The notes beneath the pieces are model-generated. The model saw only the letters and a program-made list of their open reading frames with translations, had not been told where the DNA came from and did not search any database. A stretch of 32,000 nt of DNA from Nitrosomonas europaea. GTDB taxonomy: Bacteria > Pseudomonadota > Gammaproteobacteria > Burkholderiales > Nitrosomonadaceae. Shown here piece by piece: positions 2,907 to 28,790 of the stretch. The stretch is from positions 1-32,000 of the forward strand of contig NZ_FUWK01000003.1 of NCBI RefSeq assembly GCF_900167395.1, read 5' to 3'. Position 1 is the first letter of the stretch. Each line of letters begins with the position of its first letter. The position numbers were made by a program, and so were the translations under genes.

Positions 2907-3318
2907 TCTGCACGGGCACCGTTATGTACTGGAAGTTACGATTGCAGGGGGTATTATCGCTGATGCCGGGGTGCCGGAGCAAGGCATGGTTATGGATTTC
3001 TCCGATGTCAAACGCGTTATCAGAGAAGCTTTGGTGGATCGGTGGGATCATGCCTTTCTGGTTTATGCTGGTGATACTCGCGTGCTGGAATTTCTGCAAT
3101 CGCTGGAAAATCATAAAACGGTTGTTTTGGAAGTGCAGCCCACGGCGGAGAATCTCGCCCTGATTGCTTTCGATATATTGCGCCACACATTCCGGAACAG
3201 ATACGCTGGCAGGCTGGAGCTGGAACATGTGCGTCTGTTCGAGACCCCCAACTGCTGGGCGGATGTGGATAAAGCTGTTTTCAAATCTGCAACAGTCGAC
3301 AGGATCGCGGAATCATAG
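2836..3318 (+). CDS. queD: 6-carboxy-5,6,7,8-tetrahydropterin synthase / PTPS family (QueD-like)
   Basis: N-terminus MLITRKFEFDAGHR, C-x3-HGH motif (CRNLHGHRY), MVMDFSDVK and WDHAFLV motifs. Confidence 0.85.
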   Translation: MLITRKFEFDAGHRISTHLSQCRNLHGHRYVLEVTIAGGIIADAGVPEQGMVMDFSDVKRVIREALVDRWDHAFLVYAGDTRVLEFLQSLENHKTVVLEVQPTAENLALIAFDILRHTFRNRYAGRLELEHVRLFETPNCWADVDKAVFKSATVDRIAES

Positions 3319-3388
3319 ACGGAAGCGTTTATATTTTCCTGATACTATTTTTAATTATAAAACCAGATAGCGTTAGTTTTTAAATCCT

Positions 3389-4153
3389 ATGTTTGTCGAT
3401 TCTCATTGTCACCTTGATTTTCCTGATCTCGCCAGCAGCCTGGATGAGTTGCTGGTGAACATGCAAATCAGCCAGGTCACTCATGCGCTATGCGTTGGCG
3501 TCAATCTGGAAAATTTTCCGCGTGTGCTCGCTCTGGCTGAATCACACTCGAATCTCTTTGCTTCGGTGGGTGTGCATCCCGATTATGAAGATACAGCAGA
3601 GCCAGCGGTGGAGCAGCTGCTGAAGCTGGCGGATCATGCAAAGGTCGTTGCGCTGGGGGAAACCGGTCTGGATTATTTCCGGCTGAAGGGCGATCTCGAA
3701 TGGCAGCGTGAGCGATTCCGGCGACATATCCGTGCTGCCAGGCGGTGCGGTAAACCCCTGATCATTCATACCCGTGCTGCTGCAGAAGATACACTGCGCA
3801 TCATGGAAGAAGAGGGAGCAGCCAGCGTCGGGGGCGTCATGCATTGCTTTACCGAGTCCTGGGAAATCGCCAGACGTGCGCTTGATTTGAATTTTTACAT
3901 TTCGTTTTCCGGGATCGTGACGTTCAAGAATGCGGCAATCATCAAAGAGGTGGCGAAAAAAGTGCCCGCTGACAGGATGTTGATCGAAACGGATTCACCC
4001 TATCTTGCCCCTGTTCCTCACCGGGGTGAAACCAATCAGCCGGCGTTCGTCCGGCATGTTGCCGAGGAAATTGCCCGTTTGCGTGAAACGACGCTTGCCG
4101 AAATTGCTGCGGTAACGACAAATAACTTCTTCAACTTATTCAAGGTGGTTTGA
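3389..4153 (+). CDS. TatD-family metal-dependent hydrolase/DNase (YcfH-like)
   Basis: MFVDSHCHLDF start, GVHP, GETGLDY, PLIIHTR, MHCF and IETDSPYLAPVPHRG motifs. Confidence 0.9.
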   Translation: MFVDSHCHLDFPDLASSLDELLVNMQISQVTHALCVGVNLENFPRVLALAESHSNLFASVGVHPDYEDTAEPAVEQLLKLADHAKVVALGETGLDYFRLKGDLEWQRERFRRHIRAARRCGKPLIIHTRAAAEDTLRIMEEEGAASVGGVMHCFTESWEIARRALDLNFYISFSGIVTFKNAAIIKEVAKKVPADRMLIETDSPYLAPVPHRGETNQPAFVRHVAEEIARLRETTLAEIAAVTTNNFFNLFKVV

Positions 4154-4154
4154 G

Positions 4155-4814
4155 ATGAACAGATCCCTGTGGACACAATGGAGTATTGCATCAGTCATCG
4201 TTCTGTTTTGTGCCTTTTGTCTCTATTCACCTGCCCATGCCGGGGTTGATGAGGACTTGGTTCGAGCGGTCGAAGACAATAAGACTCACCGTGTCAGGGA
4301 TTTGCTGACGAAAGGAGCCAGCCCGGATGCGCGCGATTTGCAAAGTGAAACGGCCCTGATGCTGGCGGCCAGAAATAAAAATCCGGAAATGGGTGGATTG
4401 CTGCTGGAGGCTGGTGCAAATCCAGATCTTCGCAACAAATATGGTGAGACGGCTACCATGCTGGCGTGCTATTACGGGCAGTTGGATCTGGTCAAGCGGC
4501 TATACGCAAAAGGTGCCAAAATTGACCACGATGGATGGAATCCGCTGATCTACGCTGCCAGTAAGGGTTATAAGGAAATCGTTGAGTTTCTGCTGAATTA
4601 CGGAGTGAGGATCGATGCTGCGACCGATAACGGCACGACGGCACTGATGATGGCTGTACGTGGCAATCATTACGATACCGTCGAGCTGCTGCTGAAACAC
4701 GGTGCAAATGCGCTGATCCGAAATGAAGCTGATGGTACAGCCCTGGGCTGGGCCAGAAAACAGGGCCATACCAGCATCGTGCAGTTGCTGACGCGTAACG
4801 GGACAGCAGATTGA
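4155..4814 (+). CDS. Secreted ankyrin-repeat protein
   Basis: N-terminal signal peptide ending PAHA-GVDE, followed by about 5 ankyrin repeats (G..PD/N..D..G.TALM.A). The start is 1 nt after the tatD-family stop. Confidence 0.85.
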   Translation: MNRSLWTQWSIASVIVLFCAFCLYSPAHAGVDEDLVRAVEDNKTHRVRDLLTKGASPDARDLQSETALMLAARNKNPEMGGLLLEAGANPDLRNKYGETATMLACYYGQLDLVKRLYAKGAKIDHDGWNPLIYAASKGYKEIVEFLLNYGVRIDAATDNGTTALMMAVRGNHYDTVELLLKHGANALIRNEADGTALGWARKQGHTSIVQLLTRNGTAD

Positions 4815-4878
4815 GTGTTTACTGAGGTAAGGTGGTTTGGTCGCAAGTCAGTACTGCAGCACTGTTCCGTCGAGAGTA

Positions 4879-5925
4879 TCAGGTGATCGCATAGGGGAGA
4901 GGCAGTATCGTCAACTGCGGGCCATTCGGTGTTTTCCAGTGGATGGAGCCGGCTTCCATGCTGCTGGTCTGAATGACGGCCAGAACATCAACTCCTCCCG
5001 CAGGTACAGGTGCGGCGTTAGCAATCATCCCGCATGCCTGATCACCAGTATCCGTACCAAATAAACTATCGCCGGCTGCAATATTCTGGCAAGAATCTGC
5101 ATCCAGGTGAGCCAGGTACATACGGCGCTTTACTTTGCCGAGATATTCGGTGCGAGCGACGATCTCCTGGCCGGGGTAGCATCCTTTCTTGAAACTGACT
5201 CCGCCAATGATATCCAGATTGATCATTTGCGGGATGAACTGCTCCTGAGTAGCATTGAAGATAGCGGGGATTCCTTCACGGATTTCCAGCCAGTCCCAGA
5301 TTGCCGCACCTGCACAATGTGCTTGTTTGTTCAGCTGTTCCCACAATGAAGGTGCCTGGATTGAAGTTGTCATGATTTCAAACCGGTTTTCACTGTGACA
5401 AATGATCTGCCCGTCCGGAATGGAGGTTACAGCCAATGGCGCAGGTGAAATGGTCGTATCTGGCAGCATGTTTTGCAACGATAGCAGCGCATTCTTACCA
5501 GCAATACCAATACGAATGAGATCATCGGTGTTGTCCTGAATCGATACTTTTGCCCGTAACACAAACATTTTCAGGCGTCTGGTAATCGTTTCCACTCGCT
5601 CTGCCGGGAGCTGCATCAGATAACTGTTATCGGAATCCTGCCATAACAGGAAACTGCCCAGCAAACGGCCTTTGGGCGTGCAATAGCCGCCGTGACTGGC
5701 TTGTGTGGAATCAACCGAGCGGACATCACAACTCAACTGCCCCTGCAGAAAATTTTGTGCATCCTCACCAGAAAAACGGATCAGGCCAAAGTGAGAGAGA
5801 TCGATCAATACCGGGCCTGATGCCGCTTGTGCCAGTTCGGCAGCAGGTTGTCCAAAATGTAATACCCGATTTTGTTCGATATGGGCATTACGGTGGGTCA
5901 GAAATGTAAACCAGTCGGAATTCAT
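4879..5925 (-). CDS. ygfZ: Folate-binding Fe-S cluster repair / tRNA-modification protein YgfZ (CAF17 family)
   Basis: Signature KGCYPGQEIVAR and a GcvT-like N-terminal region; 348 aa. Confidence 0.85.
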   Translation of the reverse strand: MNSDWFTFLTHRNAHIEQNRVLHFGQPAAELAQAASGPVLIDLSHFGLIRFSGEDAQNFLQGQLSCDVRSVDSTQASHGGYCTPKGRLLGSFLLWQDSDNSYLMQLPAERVETITRRLKMFVLRAKVSIQDNTDDLIRIGIAGKNALLSLQNMLPDTTISPAPLAVTSIPDGQIICHSENRFEIMTTSIQAPSLWEQLNKQAHCAGAAIWDWLEIREGIPAIFNATQEQFIPQMINLDIIGGVSFKKGCYPGQEIVARTEYLGKVKRRMYLAHLDADSCQNIAAGDSLFGTDTGDQACGMIANAAPVPAGGVDVLAVIQTSSMEAGSIHWKTPNGPQLTILPLPYAIT

Positions 5926-23110: not shown

Positions 23111-23263
23111 CGATCAGATATTTTCCTCCCTGGTGATTTTGTTGCTGATACTGATTTATAATGATTGAAAAGCTCAGGATAGGCGGGCGTGGAGATAAAA
23201 AGCCGCTGCCAGAGGGTGAAAGGAGCAGATTGTATATATTAGTGATTTCAGGGGCAAATCAGG

Positions 23264-23479
23264 ATGGATTATTTCTACGAATCGGAACACACCAAATTTA
23301 TGCGGGAATTGTTTGCAAAACGACCCGAACTTATCGAAAAACAAAAAGAAGCGCGTGCAATCTGGTGGGATAAAGATGTGGATCGTGAAGCTTTGAAATG
23401 CTTCGAGGAAGCCGAAGTGCCACAGAGAAGCTACGTATATTTTTCGTGGCCAGATCAAGAACAAGAAACAGAAAAATAG
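23264..23479 (+). CDS. DUF3460-family small protein
   Basis: The 71-aa ORF YESEHTKFMRELFAKRPELIEKQKEARAIWWDK matches the conserved betaproteobacterial small-protein pattern. Confidence 0.6.
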   Translation: MDYFYESEHTKFMRELFAKRPELIEKQKEARAIWWDKDVDREALKCFEEAEVPQRSYVYFSWPDQEQETEK

Positions 23480-23513
23480 TTGCCTGCTTCCTGTGTTTTT
23501 CCGCGGCAGTACG

Positions 23514-23542
23514 TTCAAATGGCGGTTGGAAGGTAGTATAAT
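23514..23542 (+). promoter_or_regulatory. Candidate sigma70 promoter (TTCAAA-17 bp-TATAAT)
   Basis: -35 TTCAAA at 23514-23519 and a perfect -10 TATAAT at 23537-23542 with 17-bp spacing. It lies about 240 nt upstream of tRNA-Arg. Confidence 0.35.
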
Positions 23543-23781
23543 TGCGGCGGCCTGTTTTCTTACGGGTATTACAGTGTCCGTTGTTGTTTATCGGGCCGGA
23601 GTATTGATCGATCCGGAGCATGATTTTATCTGATGGTTTGAGATCGCTCACTCCGGTTCACTGTATCTGACGGTAATGTTTCAGATCAGTAACAAGATAT
23701 CCAGAGTCTTACATATTTACCCTGCCGTTTCTTAAACTTCTTTGATGGAACGAGAAATAGAGCGTCAGCAGGTTCTCCCAG

Positions 23782-23857
23782 GCGCCCATAGCTCAGTGGA
23801 TAGAGTACTGCCCTCCGAAGGCAGGGGTCACACGTTCGAATCGTGTTGGGCGCGCCA
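23782..23857 (+). tRNA. tRNA-Arg (anticodon CCG)
   Basis: Hand-folded cloverleaf. Acceptor GCGCCCA/TGGGCGC, D arm GCTC/GAGT, anticodon stem CTGCC/GGCAG with loop CTCCGAA, T arm ACACG-TTCGAAT-CGTGT, discriminator G, encoded CCA. Confidence 0.95.
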
Positions 23858-23972: not shown

Positions 23973-24428
23973 TCAAGGGATAGAAAGAGCGAGTGCCTTA
24001 TTCTTGTAGCGCTTGTCTTCGGTTACTTCTTCCCCGAACCACGGCGGTGGTATGAATGCCTGTGCGGCATCTTCTGAAAGGAACTCCACCTCAACCAGCA
24101 TCAGGGGTGACAGATGTCCGGCAAAGACATCGAGTTCGAAGAGCTGTCCATCGGGCAGCTTTCCACTGTACCGGGTTTTCTCTACACGCCGCCCCTCTGT
24201 GGCAGGCCACAGCATTTCGAACTGAGTCACATCGATCTGAATTTCATACTCCTGTCGGGATAATCCACCCTCGGATTTCAGCGTCATGAAATATTCTGTG
24301 CCTTGCTGACGCAAGCGCAGCTCGATTGAATCTGTGGGGGTGGTCAGATAGCCCTGACGGAGCGGAACAGCGTGCAATTCGCCGTCAGGGAAAGTTGCCA
24401 CGAGAAATTTGCGTTCGATCTCGGTCAC
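23973..24428 (-). CDS. CYTH-domain triphosphate tunnel metalloenzyme (inorganic triphosphatase, NeuTTM-like)
   Basis: GTG start. The ExExK signature is at the N-terminus (TEIERKFLV); 151 aa. K7/Y27/K51/K84 are each offset by one from the residues I recall being studied in NeuTTM. The start overlaps the ParA-like stop (GTGA). Confidence 0.9.
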   Translation of the reverse strand: MTEIERKFLVATFPDGELHAVPLRQGYLTTPTDSIELRLRQQGTEYFMTLKSEGGLSRQEYEIQIDVTQFEMLWPATEGRRVEKTRYSGKLPDGQLFELDVFAGHLSPLMLVEVEFLSEDAAQAFIPPPWFGEEVTEDKRYKNKALALSIP

Positions 24429-25174
24429 GGTACTATCCGCTCAAGAAGTTCATCAAACAGTGCCTGATACGCCTTACCTGCCGGACTGTCCGGTGCGGTC
24501 GCGAGAACAGGGGCCCGTACCACTCCCATCCGCTCGATTTCGGAGGCGAAGGGGATCTTTGCGGCCATGATTCGTTTGGGATAATTATGTGTCAGTTCAA
24601 CGATCATCTCCCCATGCAAGGTTTTGGTTCCCTGGATCATCGAGAAAAAGGCATGAATCTTTTCCATCGGCAGATCGTGTTCGCGGAAGAATTCCAGTAA
24701 CTGTTCGAAAGTACGTTGCGAAAGTGTCGTGGGAATCACTGGTGTCACGACCGCATCTGCCGCGCGGAAGATATTTTCCGACAGAATAGAGATGTTGGGA
24801 GGACAGTCGAGCAGCACGATATCGTAATCACCTTTTACCGCCTTCAGAGCCTTTTTCAGACGTGAACGTGCATCTTTCATCTTCGACAGAAAGACATCGA
24901 AATCGCGAAAGCTCATGTTCGCGGGCAGAATATCGAGATTGTCGTAATCGCTGCCGCGTATCGACTTGGTAAAATGTTCGACATCCTCGAAAAAACGTGC
25001 TTCTGTCAATTTTTTCGATGGTTTTACGCGAAAGTAAAACCCTGACGCACCTTGTGGATCAAGATCGCATAGCAGCGTCCTCCGGCCAGATGTTGCGAAG
25101 GCATAGGCAAGATTGACAGCGGTGGCAGTTTTCCCGACTCCGCCTTTGTTGGAATAACAGGCAACGATCTGCAT
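24425..25174 (-). CDS. Orphan ParA/MinD-family P-loop ATPase (249 aa)
   Basis: Deviant Walker A NKGGVGKT at aa 9-16, A' motif LLCDLDPQG, Walker B YDIVLLDCPP. No N-terminal HTH extension. The ATG overlaps the CHAD gene stop (TGATG). Confidence 0.9.
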   Translation of the reverse strand: MQIVACYSNKGGVGKTATAVNLAYAFATSGRRTLLCDLDPQGASGFYFRVKPSKKLTEARFFEDVEHFTKSIRGSDYDNLDILPANMSFRDFDVFLSKMKDARSRLKKALKAVKGDYDIVLLDCPPNISILSENIFRAADAVVTPVIPTTLSQRTFEQLLEFFREHDLPMEKIHAFFSMIQGTKTLHGEMIVELTHNYPKRIMAAKIPFASEIERMGVVRAPVLATAPDSPAGKAYQALFDELLERIVP

Positions 25175-26691
25175 CAGAACTCCTTTCTACTTTGGAACAG
25201 TGTGCGGAAAGACCGCTGCATGCGGTCGCTGCTGAAACGTACAAAGGCATTCGTGATTTTTTCACGCTCGGCGGATTGACGCTGGTACAGAATGGTAATC
25301 AGCGAACCAATGCTCTGAGTGATTTCAAGCTGATGCTGTTCGTCATTGAGGTCATCGACAAATGCCTGAAGGTTGATCTGTTGAACCACGCAGTCGTTGA
25401 ACAGGCCCAGTGAATCCTGAAGTCGTTTCAATGATTTCAGCAAGCTGTCAAATGGTTCTTGTGGGAAAACAGCACTGAAGAATTCCATCGGATAGCGTAG
25501 TTTCTTGCATTCGATGCGCAACTGATGGATTTCCTGGTCTGGAGTAGCGACATTTATAGTTGCGGCGAGGCGGCAGATCTTGCGATAGCGTTTCCAGATC
25601 AGTTCACAGGCGAAATCGTAGGAGGTGCGACTGGAATTAGGTCCCGGTTTCAGTTTACGCTTCTTCGAGAACAGTTTCGTGAGCGCCTTTATCTCTTTTT
25701 TGTAGCGACCGATCTTGAGATGGATCGCCAGGCGGGCCTGTTCGTCCGTACGCCTGCTGCGCATTAGCGAAAACATTGCATCCAGCCCGCTATGCATCGT
25801 GTGGGGCACGAGAGAGTAGAAAGATTCCTGCTCCAGCAGATAGACATCAAGATCACGAAGCGGCCCCGTAGGAGTCATTAGTGCGGAAAAGCGTATTTTG
25901 AGTTGGTGAGCCTGGTCAATGTCATAGACGCCCTTGAACAGGCTCAGTATCGAGCGGATCTTGCGCAGGGCGATACGGTAGTCATGCAGGAACTCAGTAT
26001 CGAGATCATGGATGATGCCGTATTCATTCATCCGGACGATGGAGAGATAGCTGTCGATCAGATTGGTCGCCGTATCGAAGGCAGTTTCCTCTTGATGGAT
26101 CTCGATTGTCGGCTTGGCGACGTAATCGACACAAGCGTGGTCGATCATCCGATAAAGGTTACCCGCGGTCAATGGTGTCCCGCCACTGGTGCGTATGTGC
26201 GCTGTCAGATCGTCCAGCGCTTGATCGTAGCCACGTAGCCCCTGTGGCGTAATCAGTACGACTGCTTTGCCACTGATTGGCATGAGTTCCCGCAGCCCGG
26301 CTCGTGTGTGGGTTTTGCCCTCATTGTCGATCAGCGAGAGTTTTCCATTTCTCATTGTGCCCGACGCTACGGTGAGCAGCGCCCGGAGTGGTGACAGGCC
26401 CGTCAGCGCTTCCTTTACCGGCCCTTCCTGAAATCCCGTGACAAATCGGGTATCCGGTCTGGCGTGCTGGCTCAGAATTATCCCTTCCGTTGTCAACAGT
26501 TCCACCTGCTCATCAATCACGAATAACAGCCTTTGCGATTTTCGCAGGCTTTGCTCAAAGCAATCGAGGATCGCAAAACTGTATTCGTTCTCGTCCCAGT
26601 CCAGTATCGGCACCAATCCCTGAATGTCGCTACCTGCCAAATTACTCAGTTGCTCGACCGACATATAGTAATTCGCGGACTTTGAATTCAT
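25174..26691 (-). CDS. CHAD-domain protein with an N-terminal degenerate CYTH-like domain (505 aa)
   Basis: The C-terminal ~290 aa carry repeated CHAD motifs: HDYRIALRKIRSILSLF and HQLRIECKKLRYPMEFF. The N-terminal ~200 aa are beta-rich and lack ExExK. The start codon is uncertain because GGA abuts the ATG. Confidence 0.85.
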   Translation of the reverse strand: MNSKSANYYMSVEQLSNLAGSDIQGLVPILDWDENEYSFAILDCFEQSLRKSQRLLFVIDEQVELLTTEGIILSQHARPDTRFVTGFQEGPVKEALTGLSPLRALLTVASGTMRNGKLSLIDNEGKTHTRAGLRELMPISGKAVVLITPQGLRGYDQALDDLTAHIRTSGGTPLTAGNLYRMIDHACVDYVAKPTIEIHQEETAFDTATNLIDSYLSIVRMNEYGIIHDLDTEFLHDYRIALRKIRSILSLFKGVYDIDQAHQLKIRFSALMTPTGPLRDLDVYLLEQESFYSLVPHTMHSGLDAMFSLMRSRRTDEQARLAIHLKIGRYKKEIKALTKLFSKKRKLKPGPNSSRTSYDFACELIWKRYRKICRLAATINVATPDQEIHQLRIECKKLRYPMEFFSAVFPQEPFDSLLKSLKRLQDSLGLFNDCVVQQINLQAFVDDLNDEQHQLEITQSIGSLITILYQRQSAEREKITNAFVRFSSDRMQRSFRTLFQSRKEF

Positions 26692-26819
26692 TCCTTTGGC
26701 TCGCTTGAACGATCCAAATCGTTTTCGATGAGTATTTCAATAATTTTTTGCATGCTTGTTTCTTCTATGATCACGATCATCCTGATCTCCACCATGGCTG
26801 GGATCCAATCATCCGATCC

Positions 26820-26839
26820 TGTGACGCCATGACGTCACA
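26820..26839. promoter_or_regulatory. 20-bp palindrome TGTGACG-N6-CGTCACA (candidate operator)
   Basis: 18 of 20 positions are self-complementary. It contains the perfect 8-mer TGACGTCA and directly abuts the candidate -10 of the CHAD operon promoter. Confidence 0.35.
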
Positions 26840-26870
26840 TTATGATATGTGTGTGACAGATATATGACGA
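26839..26870 (-). promoter_or_regulatory. Pho-box-like element plus -10 (candidate PhoB-dependent promoter of the CHAD-ParA-CYTH operon)
   Basis: The minus strand reads TCGTCAT-ATAT-CTGTCAC (26870-26853), a 16/18 match to CTGTCATAWAWCTGTCAY. CATAAT follows 8 nt downstream (26844-26839). Confidence 0.4.
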
Positions 26871-27170: not shown

Positions 27171-27659
27171 TTATTTCGGCCTGTTCTCGATTCTAGTATA
27201 CCAGCCCTGATAGACTTCATCTGGCCACAGGGATTTGATCCAGACCAGAATGTCATCGACTTCCTGATCTGCCAGTATCCCTGCCCAGCCGGGCATACGC
27301 CCTTCCCCCGGAGGACCACCGTTCAGAATGAAGTTTTTCAGCTCCTCCGTGGAATGGTGCCAGGCATGTGCTGTTCCATCCAATGGCGGGGGCGGGTATC
27401 TGCCATTCTCCAGAGGCTTGCGCCAGTCTGGAGTACCTTCCGCATTTTGCCCATGGCATGCTGCACAATTTTTCCGGAAAAGAGCCTGTCCGCGTGCAAC
27501 CTGTTCGGGGTCAAAATTGCGCGTGACCTGTTCCGGAGATAAGTCTCTGCCCAGAATCTGATCGAGTGTCAGTGTATTACCAGTCTGCCCGGTATCGCGT
27601 TGTTCCGAGCAGGCGACAATGAGAAACAGGGATACGAGCAGTAGAACTCTTGCAGGCAT
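27171..27659 (-). CDS. Mono-heme c-type cytochrome, probable lipoprotein
   Basis: Lipobox LIVA-C, heme motif CAACHG, distal Met region GRMPGW. The ATG at 27659 lies just downstream of the DUF411 stop. Confidence 0.85.
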   Translation of the reverse strand: MPARVLLLVSLFLIVACSEQRDTGQTGNTLTLDQILGRDLSPEQVTRNFDPEQVARGQALFRKNCAACHGQNAEGTPDWRKPLENGRYPPPPLDGTAHAWHHSTEELKNFILNGGPPGEGRMPGWAGILADQEVDDILVWIKSLWPDEVYQGWYTRIENRPK

Positions 27660-27663
27660 CACG

Positions 27664-28191
27664 TTATTTGAGCCTTAACACTGAGTCGGTTGTGCTGTTT
27701 TCGGATGTTTTCTCTGCTGCCCCGGATTTTCCCGGGCCATATCGGTTATAAATTTCGGTTGCACTGCGCTTATCTCCAGGTTTCCTGATCAGCAATACGT
27801 TATAGGAATCGACACGTCCGGTTTCCATACCGGGAGAACCATGTGGCATGCCGGGCGCTGATAATCCGACTGCACGGGGGCGTTCTTTCAGAAGTTGCTT
27901 GATGTCATCCGCAGGGACATGTCCTTCTATGGCGTAGCCATTGACCAAAGCGGTGTGGCATGATCCGAGCTCGGGGAGGATGCCGGCTTCTGCCCTGGCT
28001 TCATCGTTACCAATGTCGTGGATGTTGACGGTAAACCCGTTGTCGCGCATGTGATCGACCCATTTGGCGCAACAGCCGCAAGTCGGACTTTTGTACACTT
28101 CCATGGTTGCTGCAGCTGCCATGCTGGCAGCTCCTGTTAATGCAGCCGTCAGTAAGGAACGGGTAAGGAATCTGTTAAATTGTATTTTCAT
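27664..28191 (-). CDS. copG: DUF411 / CopG-family periplasmic metal-binding protein
   Basis: Signal peptide, then the CxCC motif YKSPTCGCCAKW and GMPHGSPGME. The start at 28191 forms an ATGA overlap with the upstream stop. Confidence 0.8.
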   Translation of the reverse strand: MKIQFNRFLTRSLLTAALTGAASMAAAATMEVYKSPTCGCCAKWVDHMRDNGFTVNIHDIGNDEARAEAGILPELGSCHTALVNGYAIEGHVPADDIKQLLKERPRAVGLSAPGMPHGSPGMETGRVDSYNVLLIRKPGDKRSATEIYNRYGPGKSGAAEKTSENSTTDSVLRLK

Positions 28192-28640
28192 TTGCTCTCC
28201 ACAATAATTTTGCCTCGCATTCCTTTGAAATGACCAGGGACCGGACAAGCGAAGTCAATAGTCCCTGCTTGAGTGAAATGCCATATCAACTCTTTTTCTT
28301 CGCCAGGCTCGAGTATTATTTGATTAGGTTCAGTGTGTGCGCCATGGTCGTGCTGGCGCATCATTTTTTCATGCTCTCTGAGATGTTGCATGGTATCTAT
28401 CATCATTTCATGTTTCTTTTTTCCCGTATTTTTGACGATGAATCGGATGGTTTCGCCTTGTTTGATATTGATTTCAGAAGGTGAGAAGCGGTATTCGTAT
28501 GCTTCAAGTCTGATTGTACGTGTGACGTTTTCCTGAACACCTGGTTCACCGATTGCTGCATGGCTGTGGTTTGCTGTAGCATAAGCGCCAACAGATCCCA
28601 GACAAGAAAGCATGAGGAATACGATCAAAGTTTTTTTCAT
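28188..28640 (-). CDS. Periplasmic cupredoxin-fold copper-binding protein (CopI-like) with a His/Met-rich tract
   Basis: Signal peptide. Type-1 copper ligand pattern H(EMM)...FACPVPGHFKGM. His/Met-rich HEMMIDTMQHLREHEKMMRQHDHGAH. GGAGG lies 5 nt before ATG 28640. Confidence 0.8.
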   Translation of the reverse strand: MKKTLIVFLMLSCLGSVGAYATANHSHAAIGEPGVQENVTRTIRLEAYEYRFSPSEINIKQGETIRFIVKNTGKKKHEMMIDTMQHLREHEKMMRQHDHGAHTEPNQIILEPGEEKELIWHFTQAGTIDFACPVPGHFKGMRGKIIVESK

Positions 28641-28790
28641 ATGTTCCTCCATTGTGAGCAGAAGATCGGAATTACTGGTTGTTGTTTTATTTGACCATTA
28701 ATACTACACGAACATTTCTCTGCATTCTGATCCCGTTCATTTCCATTTATTTTTCATTTGCATTCTCCGCTAGGTATACCCGGAATCCAT

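Follow-up and report, generated by a model that had tools for sequence, protein, structure and literature searches.

A cassette of three minus-strand genes, found in a 32,000-nucleotide stretch of the Nitrosomonas europaea genome (from here on, the window), encodes a CHAD protein, a small ParA-like ATPase and the CYTH enzyme NeuTTM. The ATPase is very probably tied in its function to inorganic polyphosphate (polyP), and the cassette can plausibly be read as a positioning module of the ParA/MinD kind whose cargo and partner types are new and which brings its own enzymes. An earlier note on this DNA had proposed that the CHAD protein connects polyP granules to a nucleoid-bound ATPase, with the CYTH enzyme acting on the same substrate pool. 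This interpretation is partly supported, as the computational checks speak in its favour and some of its points are corrected below. The genes of the cassette are, with their lengths in amino acids (aa):

25174..26691, minus strand: gene of the CHAD protein (505 aa; predicted pseudo-CYTH domain plus CHAD, YgiF-like architecture)
24425..25174, minus strand: gene of the ParA-like ATPase (249 aa; deviant Walker A motif NKGGVGKT at 25127-25150)
23973..24428, minus strand: gene of the CYTH enzyme, NE1496 or NeuTTM (151 aa, GTG start)

The stop codon of the CHAD gene and the start codon of the ATPase gene overlap by one base (TGATG, 25172-25176), and the ATPase and CYTH genes share four bases (GTGA, 24425-24428). 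Judged from these overlapping junctions, which are placed exactly as previously described, the three genes are translationally coupled. Pfam recognizes CHAD (PF05235, 'phosin') in aa 212-439 of the 505-aa protein (E=1.6e-55), AAA_31/CbiA/ParA in the ATPase (E=3.6e-39) and CYTH in the 151-aa protein (E=1.4e-10). The motifs quoted in the earlier note are also present, namely NKGGVGKT (aa 9-16), DLDPQG (aa 37) and LLDCPP (aa 121) in the ATPase, and an intact ExExK in the CYTH protein, where it takes the form EIERK (aa 3-7).

Conservation of the cassette

A scan of one genome per species recovered 76 loci, 70 of which hold a full-length orthologue of the ATPase (52-96% identity). They come from Alpha-, Beta- and Gammaproteobacteria, Desulfobacterota and Verrucomicrobiota, and most of them are chromosomal. 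A CHAD gene lies upstream of the ATPase gene in 68 of the 70 (directly in 65, slightly further away in two, and fragmented in one), and a CYTH gene follows directly downstream in half of them (35). The survey of gene neighbourhoods that had been suggested as a check therefore finds the trio syntenic well beyond a single lineage.

A fourth gene, encoding a small ribbon-helix-helix (RHH) protein, accompanies the cassette in part of the loci, and all four combinations of RHH and CYTH presence occur. All-against-all clustering of the flanking open reading frames (ORFs) of the 70 loci gave no further family present in more than eight, which points to a self-contained cassette residing in unrelated contexts. 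Its most conserved gene is that of the ATPase, whose 82% identity between Nitrosomonas and Paracoccus suggests that the cassette is horizontally mobile and has spread laterally. In Desulfobacter and Desulfobulbaceae, the cassette adjoins a gene for Ppx/GppA or PPK1, located on the minus strand at 3254-4216 in locus L058, 1629-3563 in L060 and 5424-7367 in L061.

These observations bear on the alternative that there is no functional unit at all, and that an orphan ParA-like gene merely lies between two polyP-related genes. The overlapping junctions, the adjacency of CHAD and ParA genes in 68 of 70 loci, which are spread over five lineages and unrelated in the rest of their flanks, and the occurrence of domain fusions all speak against it. 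Synteny and fusions effectively refute this alternative, which is regarded as extremely improbable.

Fusions and gene contexts of distant relatives

Distant relatives of the ATPase were collected by an exhaustive search of 1.84 billion cluster representatives, which yielded 321 clusters at E<=1e-30, and the best 150 representatives (36-79% identity) were analysed. Among these 150 there are at least ten ParA::CYTH fusions of about 505-545 aa. Their C-terminal CYTH domains form one homologous family, in which the ExExK motif is canonical in some members (ELEFK, EIEFK, EHEYK) and degenerate in others. The gene contexts of relatives with 38-46% identity include the arrangements NUDIX-CHAD-ParA::CYTH, CHAD-ParA::CYTH with a one-base overlap, PPK1-CHAD-ParA-PFK (where PFK stands for phosphofructokinase), PFK-PPK1-CHAD-ParA-CYTH, RHH-ParA-CYTH::NUDIX, and the simpler CHAD-ParA and ParA-CYTH. 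The arrangement PPK1-CHAD-ParA-PFK was found again in both close loci from a metagenome scan with the PPK1-linked relative. One look-up showed ParA fused to a degenerate CYTH domain on a contig cut just upstream, and two of the 12 look-ups made in total were uninformative owing to short contigs.

The fusions, together with the PPK1, PPX, NUDIX and CHAD contexts of the more distant relatives (36-50% identity), make the link between the ATPase clade and polyP strong and independent of the window. The adjacency of ppk, parA and CHAD genes as such had already been seen, since a 2024 paper on CHAD proteins noted, without interpretation, that folD-ppk-parA-CHAD is conserved in Acidithiobacillus.

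Some further features of these relatives are worth recording. A phosphofructokinase gene stands alongside ppk1-CHAD-parA in two subclades, on either side of it (L089, 911-5911; L106, 2917-7376; L091, 789-6531), and a role related to pyrophosphate or polyP is possible for its product. NUDIX genes are located after CYTH, before CHAD, or fused to CYTH (L082, 7253-7651; L084, 804-1241; L087, 4752-5651), which suggests that NUDIX is another accessory that cleaves phosphoanhydrides. In P0255 (L100, gene 67-1752, on a short contig), a 43%-identical ATPase is fused to a HAD hydrolase resembling sucrose-6-phosphate phosphatase. In P0259 (L096-L098, gene 4001-5029), which has no CHAD or CYTH neighbour, a 45%-identical ATPase carries a tail of about 95 aa rich in Ala, Lys, Pro and Ser that resembles the histone-H1-like DNA-binding tail of AlgP. 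An apparent CHAD::ParA fusion, P0288, comes from a PPK1-CHAD-ParA-CYTH locus; it has an R/C/G-rich junction of 85 aa and one half of a CHAD domain, is likely to be a frameshift artefact and was left out of the fusion count. The C-terminal extensions of P0252, P0261, P0282, P0303 and P0338 were ignored, as they look like read-through of GC-rich sequence.

Placement of the ATPase

By its motifs and its AAA_31 match, the ATPase belongs to the deviant-Walker-A superfamily of ParA and MinD. Residues K10, K15, D37, D39 and D121/D122 are invariant in 53 orthologues and 46 diverse relatives. The P-loop stands at the very start of the protein, the last helix is of the normal Soj-like kind and no additional amphipathic tail follows it, which confirms from the sequence the former statement that it has neither a helix-turn-helix (HTH) extension nor a MinD-type C-terminal membrane helix. 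Conserved basic residues are found at K172, K184, R215, R220 and R246, and are candidates for DNA binding by analogy with Soj and ParA mutants; K184 sits at the position of the D-R-R-K motif of the relatives.

This ATPase lies apart from the ParA/Soj proteins linked to ParB, in answer to the question of phylogenetic placement raised by the earlier note. Its scores remain below every NCBIfam equivalog cut-off (89 bits versus 180 for ParA_partition, and far below for RepA and SopA). The closest solved structure is 4PFS, a mycobacterial ParA-like protein (E=2e-25), along with 8RAY, cited in a study of ParA activation by ParB, and the Soj proteins of Thermus and Helicobacter (1e-20 to 1e-16). The structures of MinD, McdA, ParF, P1 ParA and FleN match far more weakly (1e-4 to 1e-9, with McdA at about 8e-7). 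Five ParA/Soj proteins from partition loci on plasmids or chromosomes, four of them with an adjacent ParB, were included in a neighbour-joining tree built on 143 sequences. They fall outside the clade of the window ATPase, and this clade holds all the 150 best representatives. PolyP-linked contexts appear in at least three of its subclades, interspersed with orphans.

No ParB gene was found in the flanks of the window cassette or in those related loci for which the gene content was inspected, so that the claimed absence of an adjacent ParB-like gene holds in all of them, and no McdB-like or carboxysome genes are present near the cassette. Plasmid-borne orthologues (61-69% identity) occur on Paracoccus megaplasmids only, again together with CHAD and CYTH. 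Given this restriction, and as classic plasmid ParAs are at most 32% identical to the ATPase, a role in plasmid partition was considered and rejected.

Architecture of the CHAD protein and identity of the CYTH enzyme

The 505-aa protein consists of two domains:

26077..26691, minus strand: N-terminal domain (aa 1-205), predicted CYTH/triphosphate-tunnel fold without ExExK
25204..26058, minus strand: CHAD domain (aa 212-496) of the 'long' type, by Pfam and similarity to CtCHAD

The CHAD domain is most similar to CtCHAD from Chlorobium (3E0S/6QV7, E about 3e-46), which belongs to the long, pore-forming type. In CtCHAD, residues H253, R256, R260, R296 and R418/Y419 contact polyP, and their mutation weakened polyP binding (PMC6537752). 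The equivalent residues of the 505-aa protein (H236, R239, R243, R279 and R399/Y400) are all conserved and, judging from this conservation, the domain is capable of binding polyP.

The N-terminal domain matches nothing in Pfam, or in the Protein Data Bank (PDB) in a profile search, and the Pfam CYTH profile matches it in none of 33 family members. Its CYTH fold is identified through predicted structure alone. An AlphaFold2 model built from 60 homologues (pLDDT 89, pTM 0.82) was compared with the PDB by Foldseek, and the best 38 matches are almost all CYTH/triphosphate tunnel metalloenzyme (TTM) proteins, with probability about 1 and TM scores of 0.3-0.5, the few others being Mediator-head chains. 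Among the named matches are thiamine triphosphatase (ThTPase), class IV cyclases, SaTTM, AtTTM3 and YgiF (5A60). The invariant residues of the domain are D43, R103, K126, G154 and Y155, and its first strand reads YYMS in the window and xYxLP in the consensus, not ExExK. An 'LDxFDxxL' motif is the sole CYTH-like trace in its sequence. Alignment by hhalign to the NeuTTM-type CYTH proteins was negative, alignment to the fused CYTH domains gave just a 21-column match at the FDT motif, and a homologue search with the domain alone returned a single match.

Because ExExK and a CYTH sequence profile are both missing, the domain is treated as a pseudo-enzyme or binding domain. The 505-aa protein would then be YgiF-like (CYTH-CHAD), with a degenerate CYTH domain that is probably non-catalytic. 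The model assigns a fold to the hitherto unannotated half of a large CHAD protein family. The earlier note had left out this separate domain (aa 1-205), as well as the RHH relic and operator at 26688-26839 described in the next section.

The 151-aa CYTH protein is identical over its whole length to PDB entries 2FBL and 3TYP ('hypothetical protein NE1496', 100% identity over 151 aa). The N. europaea enzyme specific for tripolyphosphate, which the earlier note had mentioned, is thus encoded by this very gene. NE1496, or NeuTTM, is a specific inorganic triphosphatase with reported tripolyphosphatase (PPPase) activity, and its biological role has been called unclear since its characterization (PMC3440374). 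The cassette represents a first physiological context for NeuTTM and, conversely, has one component for which a crystal structure and measured enzymology already exist.

The RHH gene and its predicted operator

Directly upstream of the CHAD gene, the window holds the traces of a fourth gene and its control region:

26688..26795, minus strand: relic of the RHH gene, a 35-aa ORF (MVEIRMIVIIEETSMQKIIEILIENDLDRSSEPKE) whose stop overlaps the CHAD start (ATGA)
26820..26839, no strand: inverted repeat (palindrome TGTGACGTCATGGCGTCACA, with TGACGTCA at 26830-26837), putative relic of the RHH operator
26842..26870, minus strand: promoter-like site, -35 TCGTCA, 17-nt spacer, -10 TATCAT, from a consensus scan (9 of 12 positions)

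An intact RHH gene, for a protein of 53-66 aa, lies directly upstream of CHAD in 31 of the 70 orthologous loci, and in most cases the two genes overlap at an ATGA. Scoring covered 66 of the loci, of which 35 lack the RHH gene. The encoded proteins start with a lysine-rich tail, followed by 'NTSLRL..KTLKALKIRAIEEDTSVQKIIETL'. Pfam RHH_1/RHH_4 scores above threshold for the Desulfobacter member, and there is a weak match to ParG. The tail spans about 15 aa with a mean net charge of +2.7, and is basic and disordered as in ParA partners.

Every intact RHH gene is preceded by the TGACGTCA palindrome and/or by ACGTCAT heptads, situated just after a TTGAC-like -35 element. The density of TGACGTCA reaches 1.56 per kb upstream of RHH genes versus 0.008 per kb in the rest of the loci and, among loci without an intact RHH gene, it is found only where an RHH remnant exists. 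In L070 (2555-4490), a Janthinobacterium metagenome-assembled genome (MAG), five tandem CACGTCAT heptads lie upstream of the RHH gene. The same locus holds a second, canonical CYTH-CHAD gene (its product starts with METELKLL) on the opposite strand.

In the window, a tblastn search with intact RHH proteins matches only the region of their C-terminal helix (26709-26786), and the 35-aa relic has neither the lysine-rich tail nor the DNA-binding beta-strand. The relic carries indels in a second Nitrosomonas genome (L001). The TGACGTCA at 26830-26837 is the single one in 32 kb. The promoter-like sequence, a candidate from its consensus match, is conserved in L001. Overlapping its predicted -10 element, CTGTCACACACATATCAT (26842-26859, minus strand) resembles the Pho box of E. 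coli, with two 7-bp half-sites and a 4-bp spacer.

The simplest reading of these data is that the RHH protein is an autorepressor that has decayed in Nitrosomonas, and an RHH-operator pair can be predicted from the relatives of the cassette. The previous description of the ATPase as an orphan thus holds in Nitrosomonas, but not in about 45% of the orthologous loci, where a ParG/omega-like RHH gene and heptads accompany it.

The RHH protein also brings up the alternative of type Ib DNA partition, known from ParF-ParG and delta-omega, where ParA and RHH would stabilize a plasmid or island and CHAD and CYTH would be passengers. The lysine-rich disordered tail (+2.7), the iterated heptads (five in tandem in L070) and the weak Pfam match to ParG are in line with such a system, as are the patchy distribution, the high identity across phyla and the presence on Paracoccus megaplasmids. 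However, over half of the orthologous loci, the window included, lack the RHH gene, and CHAD-ParA is intact there. The CHAD gene separates RHH from ParA, with a stop codon overlapping a start codon at the junctions, and the heptads make up one short operator across the promoter, as is typical of autoregulation. The flanks contain no conserved replication, mobility or integrase genes, most loci are chromosomal, and the Paracoccus plasmid examined has its own replicon type. In addition, the clade of the ATPase includes CYTH fusions and has links to PPK1 and PPX. The window itself, with a 35-aa RHH relic devoid of the DNA-binding strand and a single palindrome, falls outside the type Ib systems. 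Since RHH is dispensable and there is no replicon context, type Ib partition is considered improbable.

Possible positioning of granules or recruitment of an effector

Nucleoid-based positioning of polyP granules by the ATPase, with the CHAD protein as adaptor, is given an even chance of being the correct mechanism. According to this model, the CHAD protein would coat or mark polyP granules, and the ATP-bound ParA dimer would bind to a matrix. The nucleoid is the most likely matrix in view of the Soj-like closest solved relatives, the lack of a membrane helix and the conserved basic residues. Granule-bound CHAD protein, by means of its pseudo-CYTH domain, would contact ParA and cause ATP hydrolysis and release, which the lysine-rich tail of the RHH protein, where present, might also trigger. 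In this way a diffusion-ratchet, like that of McdAB for carboxysomes, would space the granules and secure their inheritance. An accessory role would fall to the CYTH enzyme, which would trim tripolyphosphate or short chain ends at this same site. The RHH protein would primarily be an autorepressor acting on the TGACGTCA heptads that overlap the promoter, and its decay in Nitrosomonas probably leaves the operon without RHH regulation. In favour of the model stand the overlapping junctions, the synteny, the fusions and polyP-related contexts of the relatives, the conserved polyP-contacting residues, the ParA/Soj type of the nearest solved structures, the lack of ParB in the neighbourhoods examined and the AlgP-like tail of P0259.

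Several points weigh against this model, which is weakest where the activation of the ATPase is concerned. Many CHAD proteins, such as YgiF of E. coli, function without a neighbouring ParA. ParA partners use a positively charged, disordered N-terminus to stimulate the ATPase (PMC10241942), whereas the CHAD protein shows no basic character over its first 30 aa (mean net charge -0.2) and is folded from residue 8. As its N-terminus is a folded pseudo-CYTH domain without the basic disorder typical of ParA partners, the adaptor role of the CHAD protein is suggested by synteny alone. The tail of the RHH protein does fit, but over half of the loci, the window among them, do not have this protein. Two Burkholderiales MAGs with a 64%-identical ATPase (L050, 5030-5776; L051, 2172-2912) have no CHAD, CYTH or RHH gene nearby, and the partner may be encoded elsewhere or lost. 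Two of the distant relatives are likewise orphans with neither CHAD nor CYTH in their vicinity, and the 12 look-ups are a small sample. The neighbour-joining tree has no support values, which makes its deep order unreliable. In the AlphaFold2 model of the ParA::CYTH fusion P0369 (pTM 0.62), the ParA and CYTH domains are each confident, the linker is disordered and no inter-domain arrangement is confident. Finally, a CYTH domain fused to the ATPase would be an uncommon kind of cargo adaptor and is easier to understand as an effector.

Given how abundant the ParA::CYTH fusions are, a CYTH fold, active or degenerate, seems to be the direct associate of the ATPase, and these fusions fit effector recruitment about as well as cargo positioning. 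The ATPase might hence be an ATP switch resembling MinD-MinC, in which ParA recruits, concentrates or gates a CYTH-type phosphohydrolase that is fused, adjacent or paired with NUDIX. Recruitment would take place at the granule surface or at the interface of nucleoid and granule, possibly with polyP as the matrix and with CHAD/pseudo-CYTH as granule anchor, and the output would be polyP turnover or granule size rather than position. The ParA::CYTH fusions with long flexible linkers form a whole subclade, and most systems include a CYTH fold, be it the pseudo-CYTH domain of the CHAD protein, a separate gene or a fused domain. NUDIX genes and one fusion to a HAD phosphatase are likewise found, and the CHAD protein has no canonical partner peptide, all of which agrees with a switch. 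On the other hand, half of the orthologous loci consist of CHAD-ParA with no active CYTH gene nearby, and ExExK is gone from some of the fused CYTH domains, which means that catalysis is not an output common to all systems. The homologues nearest to the ATPase among solved structures are moreover nucleoid binders. To our knowledge there is no precedent for a ParA/MinD ATPase with polyP as matrix, which also counts against the switch. An ATP switch is the main rival explanation, a possible mechanism but less probable than granule positioning.

A more specific proposal is that the polyP granule itself serves as the ATP-dependent matrix of the ATPase, which would arrange a tethered tripolyphosphatase or pseudo-CYTH module across the surface of the granule. 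This is rather unlikely; if true, ParA/MinD ATPases would gain polyP as a third type of matrix, and an organelle made of inorganic polymer would have its size, number and turnover under energy-driven control.

Surroundings of the cassette in the window

The tRNA-Arg gene (anticodon CCG) at 23782-23857 on the plus strand is convergent with the cassette and lies at its end, at a distance of 115 bases from the CYTH stop codon. Transfer RNA genes are common integration points, and the cassette does abut this one; the GC content is unremarkable and mobility genes are missing from the flanks, and the idea of a genomic island was not retained. Between the tRNA gene and a saccharopine-dehydrogenase-like gene extends an AT-rich stretch (23174-23700, GC about 0.44) with a single ORF of 71 aa on the plus strand (23264-23479).

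Directly before the cassette, the upstream flank (27171-28652, minus strand) encodes a cupredoxin, a DUF411 protein and a cytochrome c. In other genomes, these genes are not conserved as neighbours of the cassette. A role of CHAD proteins in copper resistance has been proposed in a 2024 paper. The flanks of the cassette in the window contain no ppk, ppx or parB. A function in anti-phage defence was also considered and discarded, as PADLOC gave one match of the ATPase at the level of the P-loop (E=1e-6, 36 residues) and nothing for CHAD and CYTH.

Significance

The positioning and inheritance of polyP granules is an acknowledged open question in bacteria. According to a 2025 review, the proteins that position these granules are unidentified in Caulobacter, only AlgP and chromosome segregation are listed, and whether granule localization consumes energy "remains to be seen" (PMC13052382). 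A 2026 study considers the positioning mechanism undefined in most model organisms (PMC13081873), and neither a 2023 multi-cargo study nor a 2024 review of ParA/MinD ATPases mentions polyP or CHAD. Full-text searches of the literature gave no description of a ParA-type system for polyP granules, although a passing mention of the neighbourhood in older subscription papers is possible. The earlier statement that no characterized ParA system is known to be wired to CHAD or CYTH proteins agrees with this literature, the 2023-2025 reviews and the 2026 paper included.

The cassette would be the first concrete candidate for ATP-driven organization of polyP granules, and it recurs across phyla, sometimes together with polyphosphate kinase. 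It is compact (two to four genes), widely distributed and genetically tractable. The handling of polyP is relevant to stress survival and to phosphorus removal from wastewater, an environment where Nitrosomonas and several of the carrier genera live.

Comparison with known systems

The McdA-McdB system shares with the cassette a small ParA-family ATPase without N-terminal HTH, encoded beside a protein that binds a cellular body made of protein or polymer instead of DNA. The expected logic is also common, a gradient of nucleoid-bound ATPase that spaces the cargo (PMC13081873; PMC13052382). McdA structures match the cassette ATPase at E about 8e-7, compared to 1e-20 to 1e-25 for those of the ParA/Soj type. 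Unlike McdB, the putative adaptor of the cassette is a folded pseudo-CYTH plus CHAD protein without a basic disordered N-terminus. The cassette additionally includes enzymes (CYTH, NUDIX) and often an RHH regulator, and its cargo would be a granule of an inorganic polymer.

ParF-ParG from TP228 and delta-omega from pSM19035 likewise use a small ParA without HTH. ParG and omega resemble the RHH proteins of the cassette relatives in being small dimers with a flexible basic N-terminal tail, whose short iterated sites double as operator. In contrast to these partition systems, the RHH gene of the cassette is located upstream and separated from ParA by the CHAD gene, is evolutionarily dispensable (absent from more than 50% of loci), and is found with polyP partners and no replicon context.

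YgiF from E. coli, a tripolyphosphatase/polyPase, has, like the 505-aa protein, a CYTH-fold domain followed by CHAD. PPPase activity is documented for YgiF (PMC3440374), and the CHAD domain binds polyP (PMC6537752). The CYTH-fold domain of the 505-aa protein differs from that of YgiF in having neither ExExK nor detectable CYTH sequence similarity. Other differences are the 'long', pore-forming CHAD domain of the CtCHAD kind, the active CYTH encoded by a separate gene, and the ATPase gene between the two.

The ParA::CYTH fusions recall MinD-MinC, in which an ATP-dependent dimer brings an effector domain to a surface. Unlike MinD, the cassette ATPase carries no membrane-targeting helix, MinD structures match it weakly (E 1e-4 to 1e-8), and the effector would be a phosphohydrolase.

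The problem that the cassette would address, the even spacing and inheritance of polyP or polyhydroxybutyrate (PHB) granules along the nucleoid, is the same one that is met by AlgP from Pseudomonas aeruginosa and by PhaM/PhaF. Unlike the cassette, these proteins are passive DNA-binding tethers that work with no ATPase.

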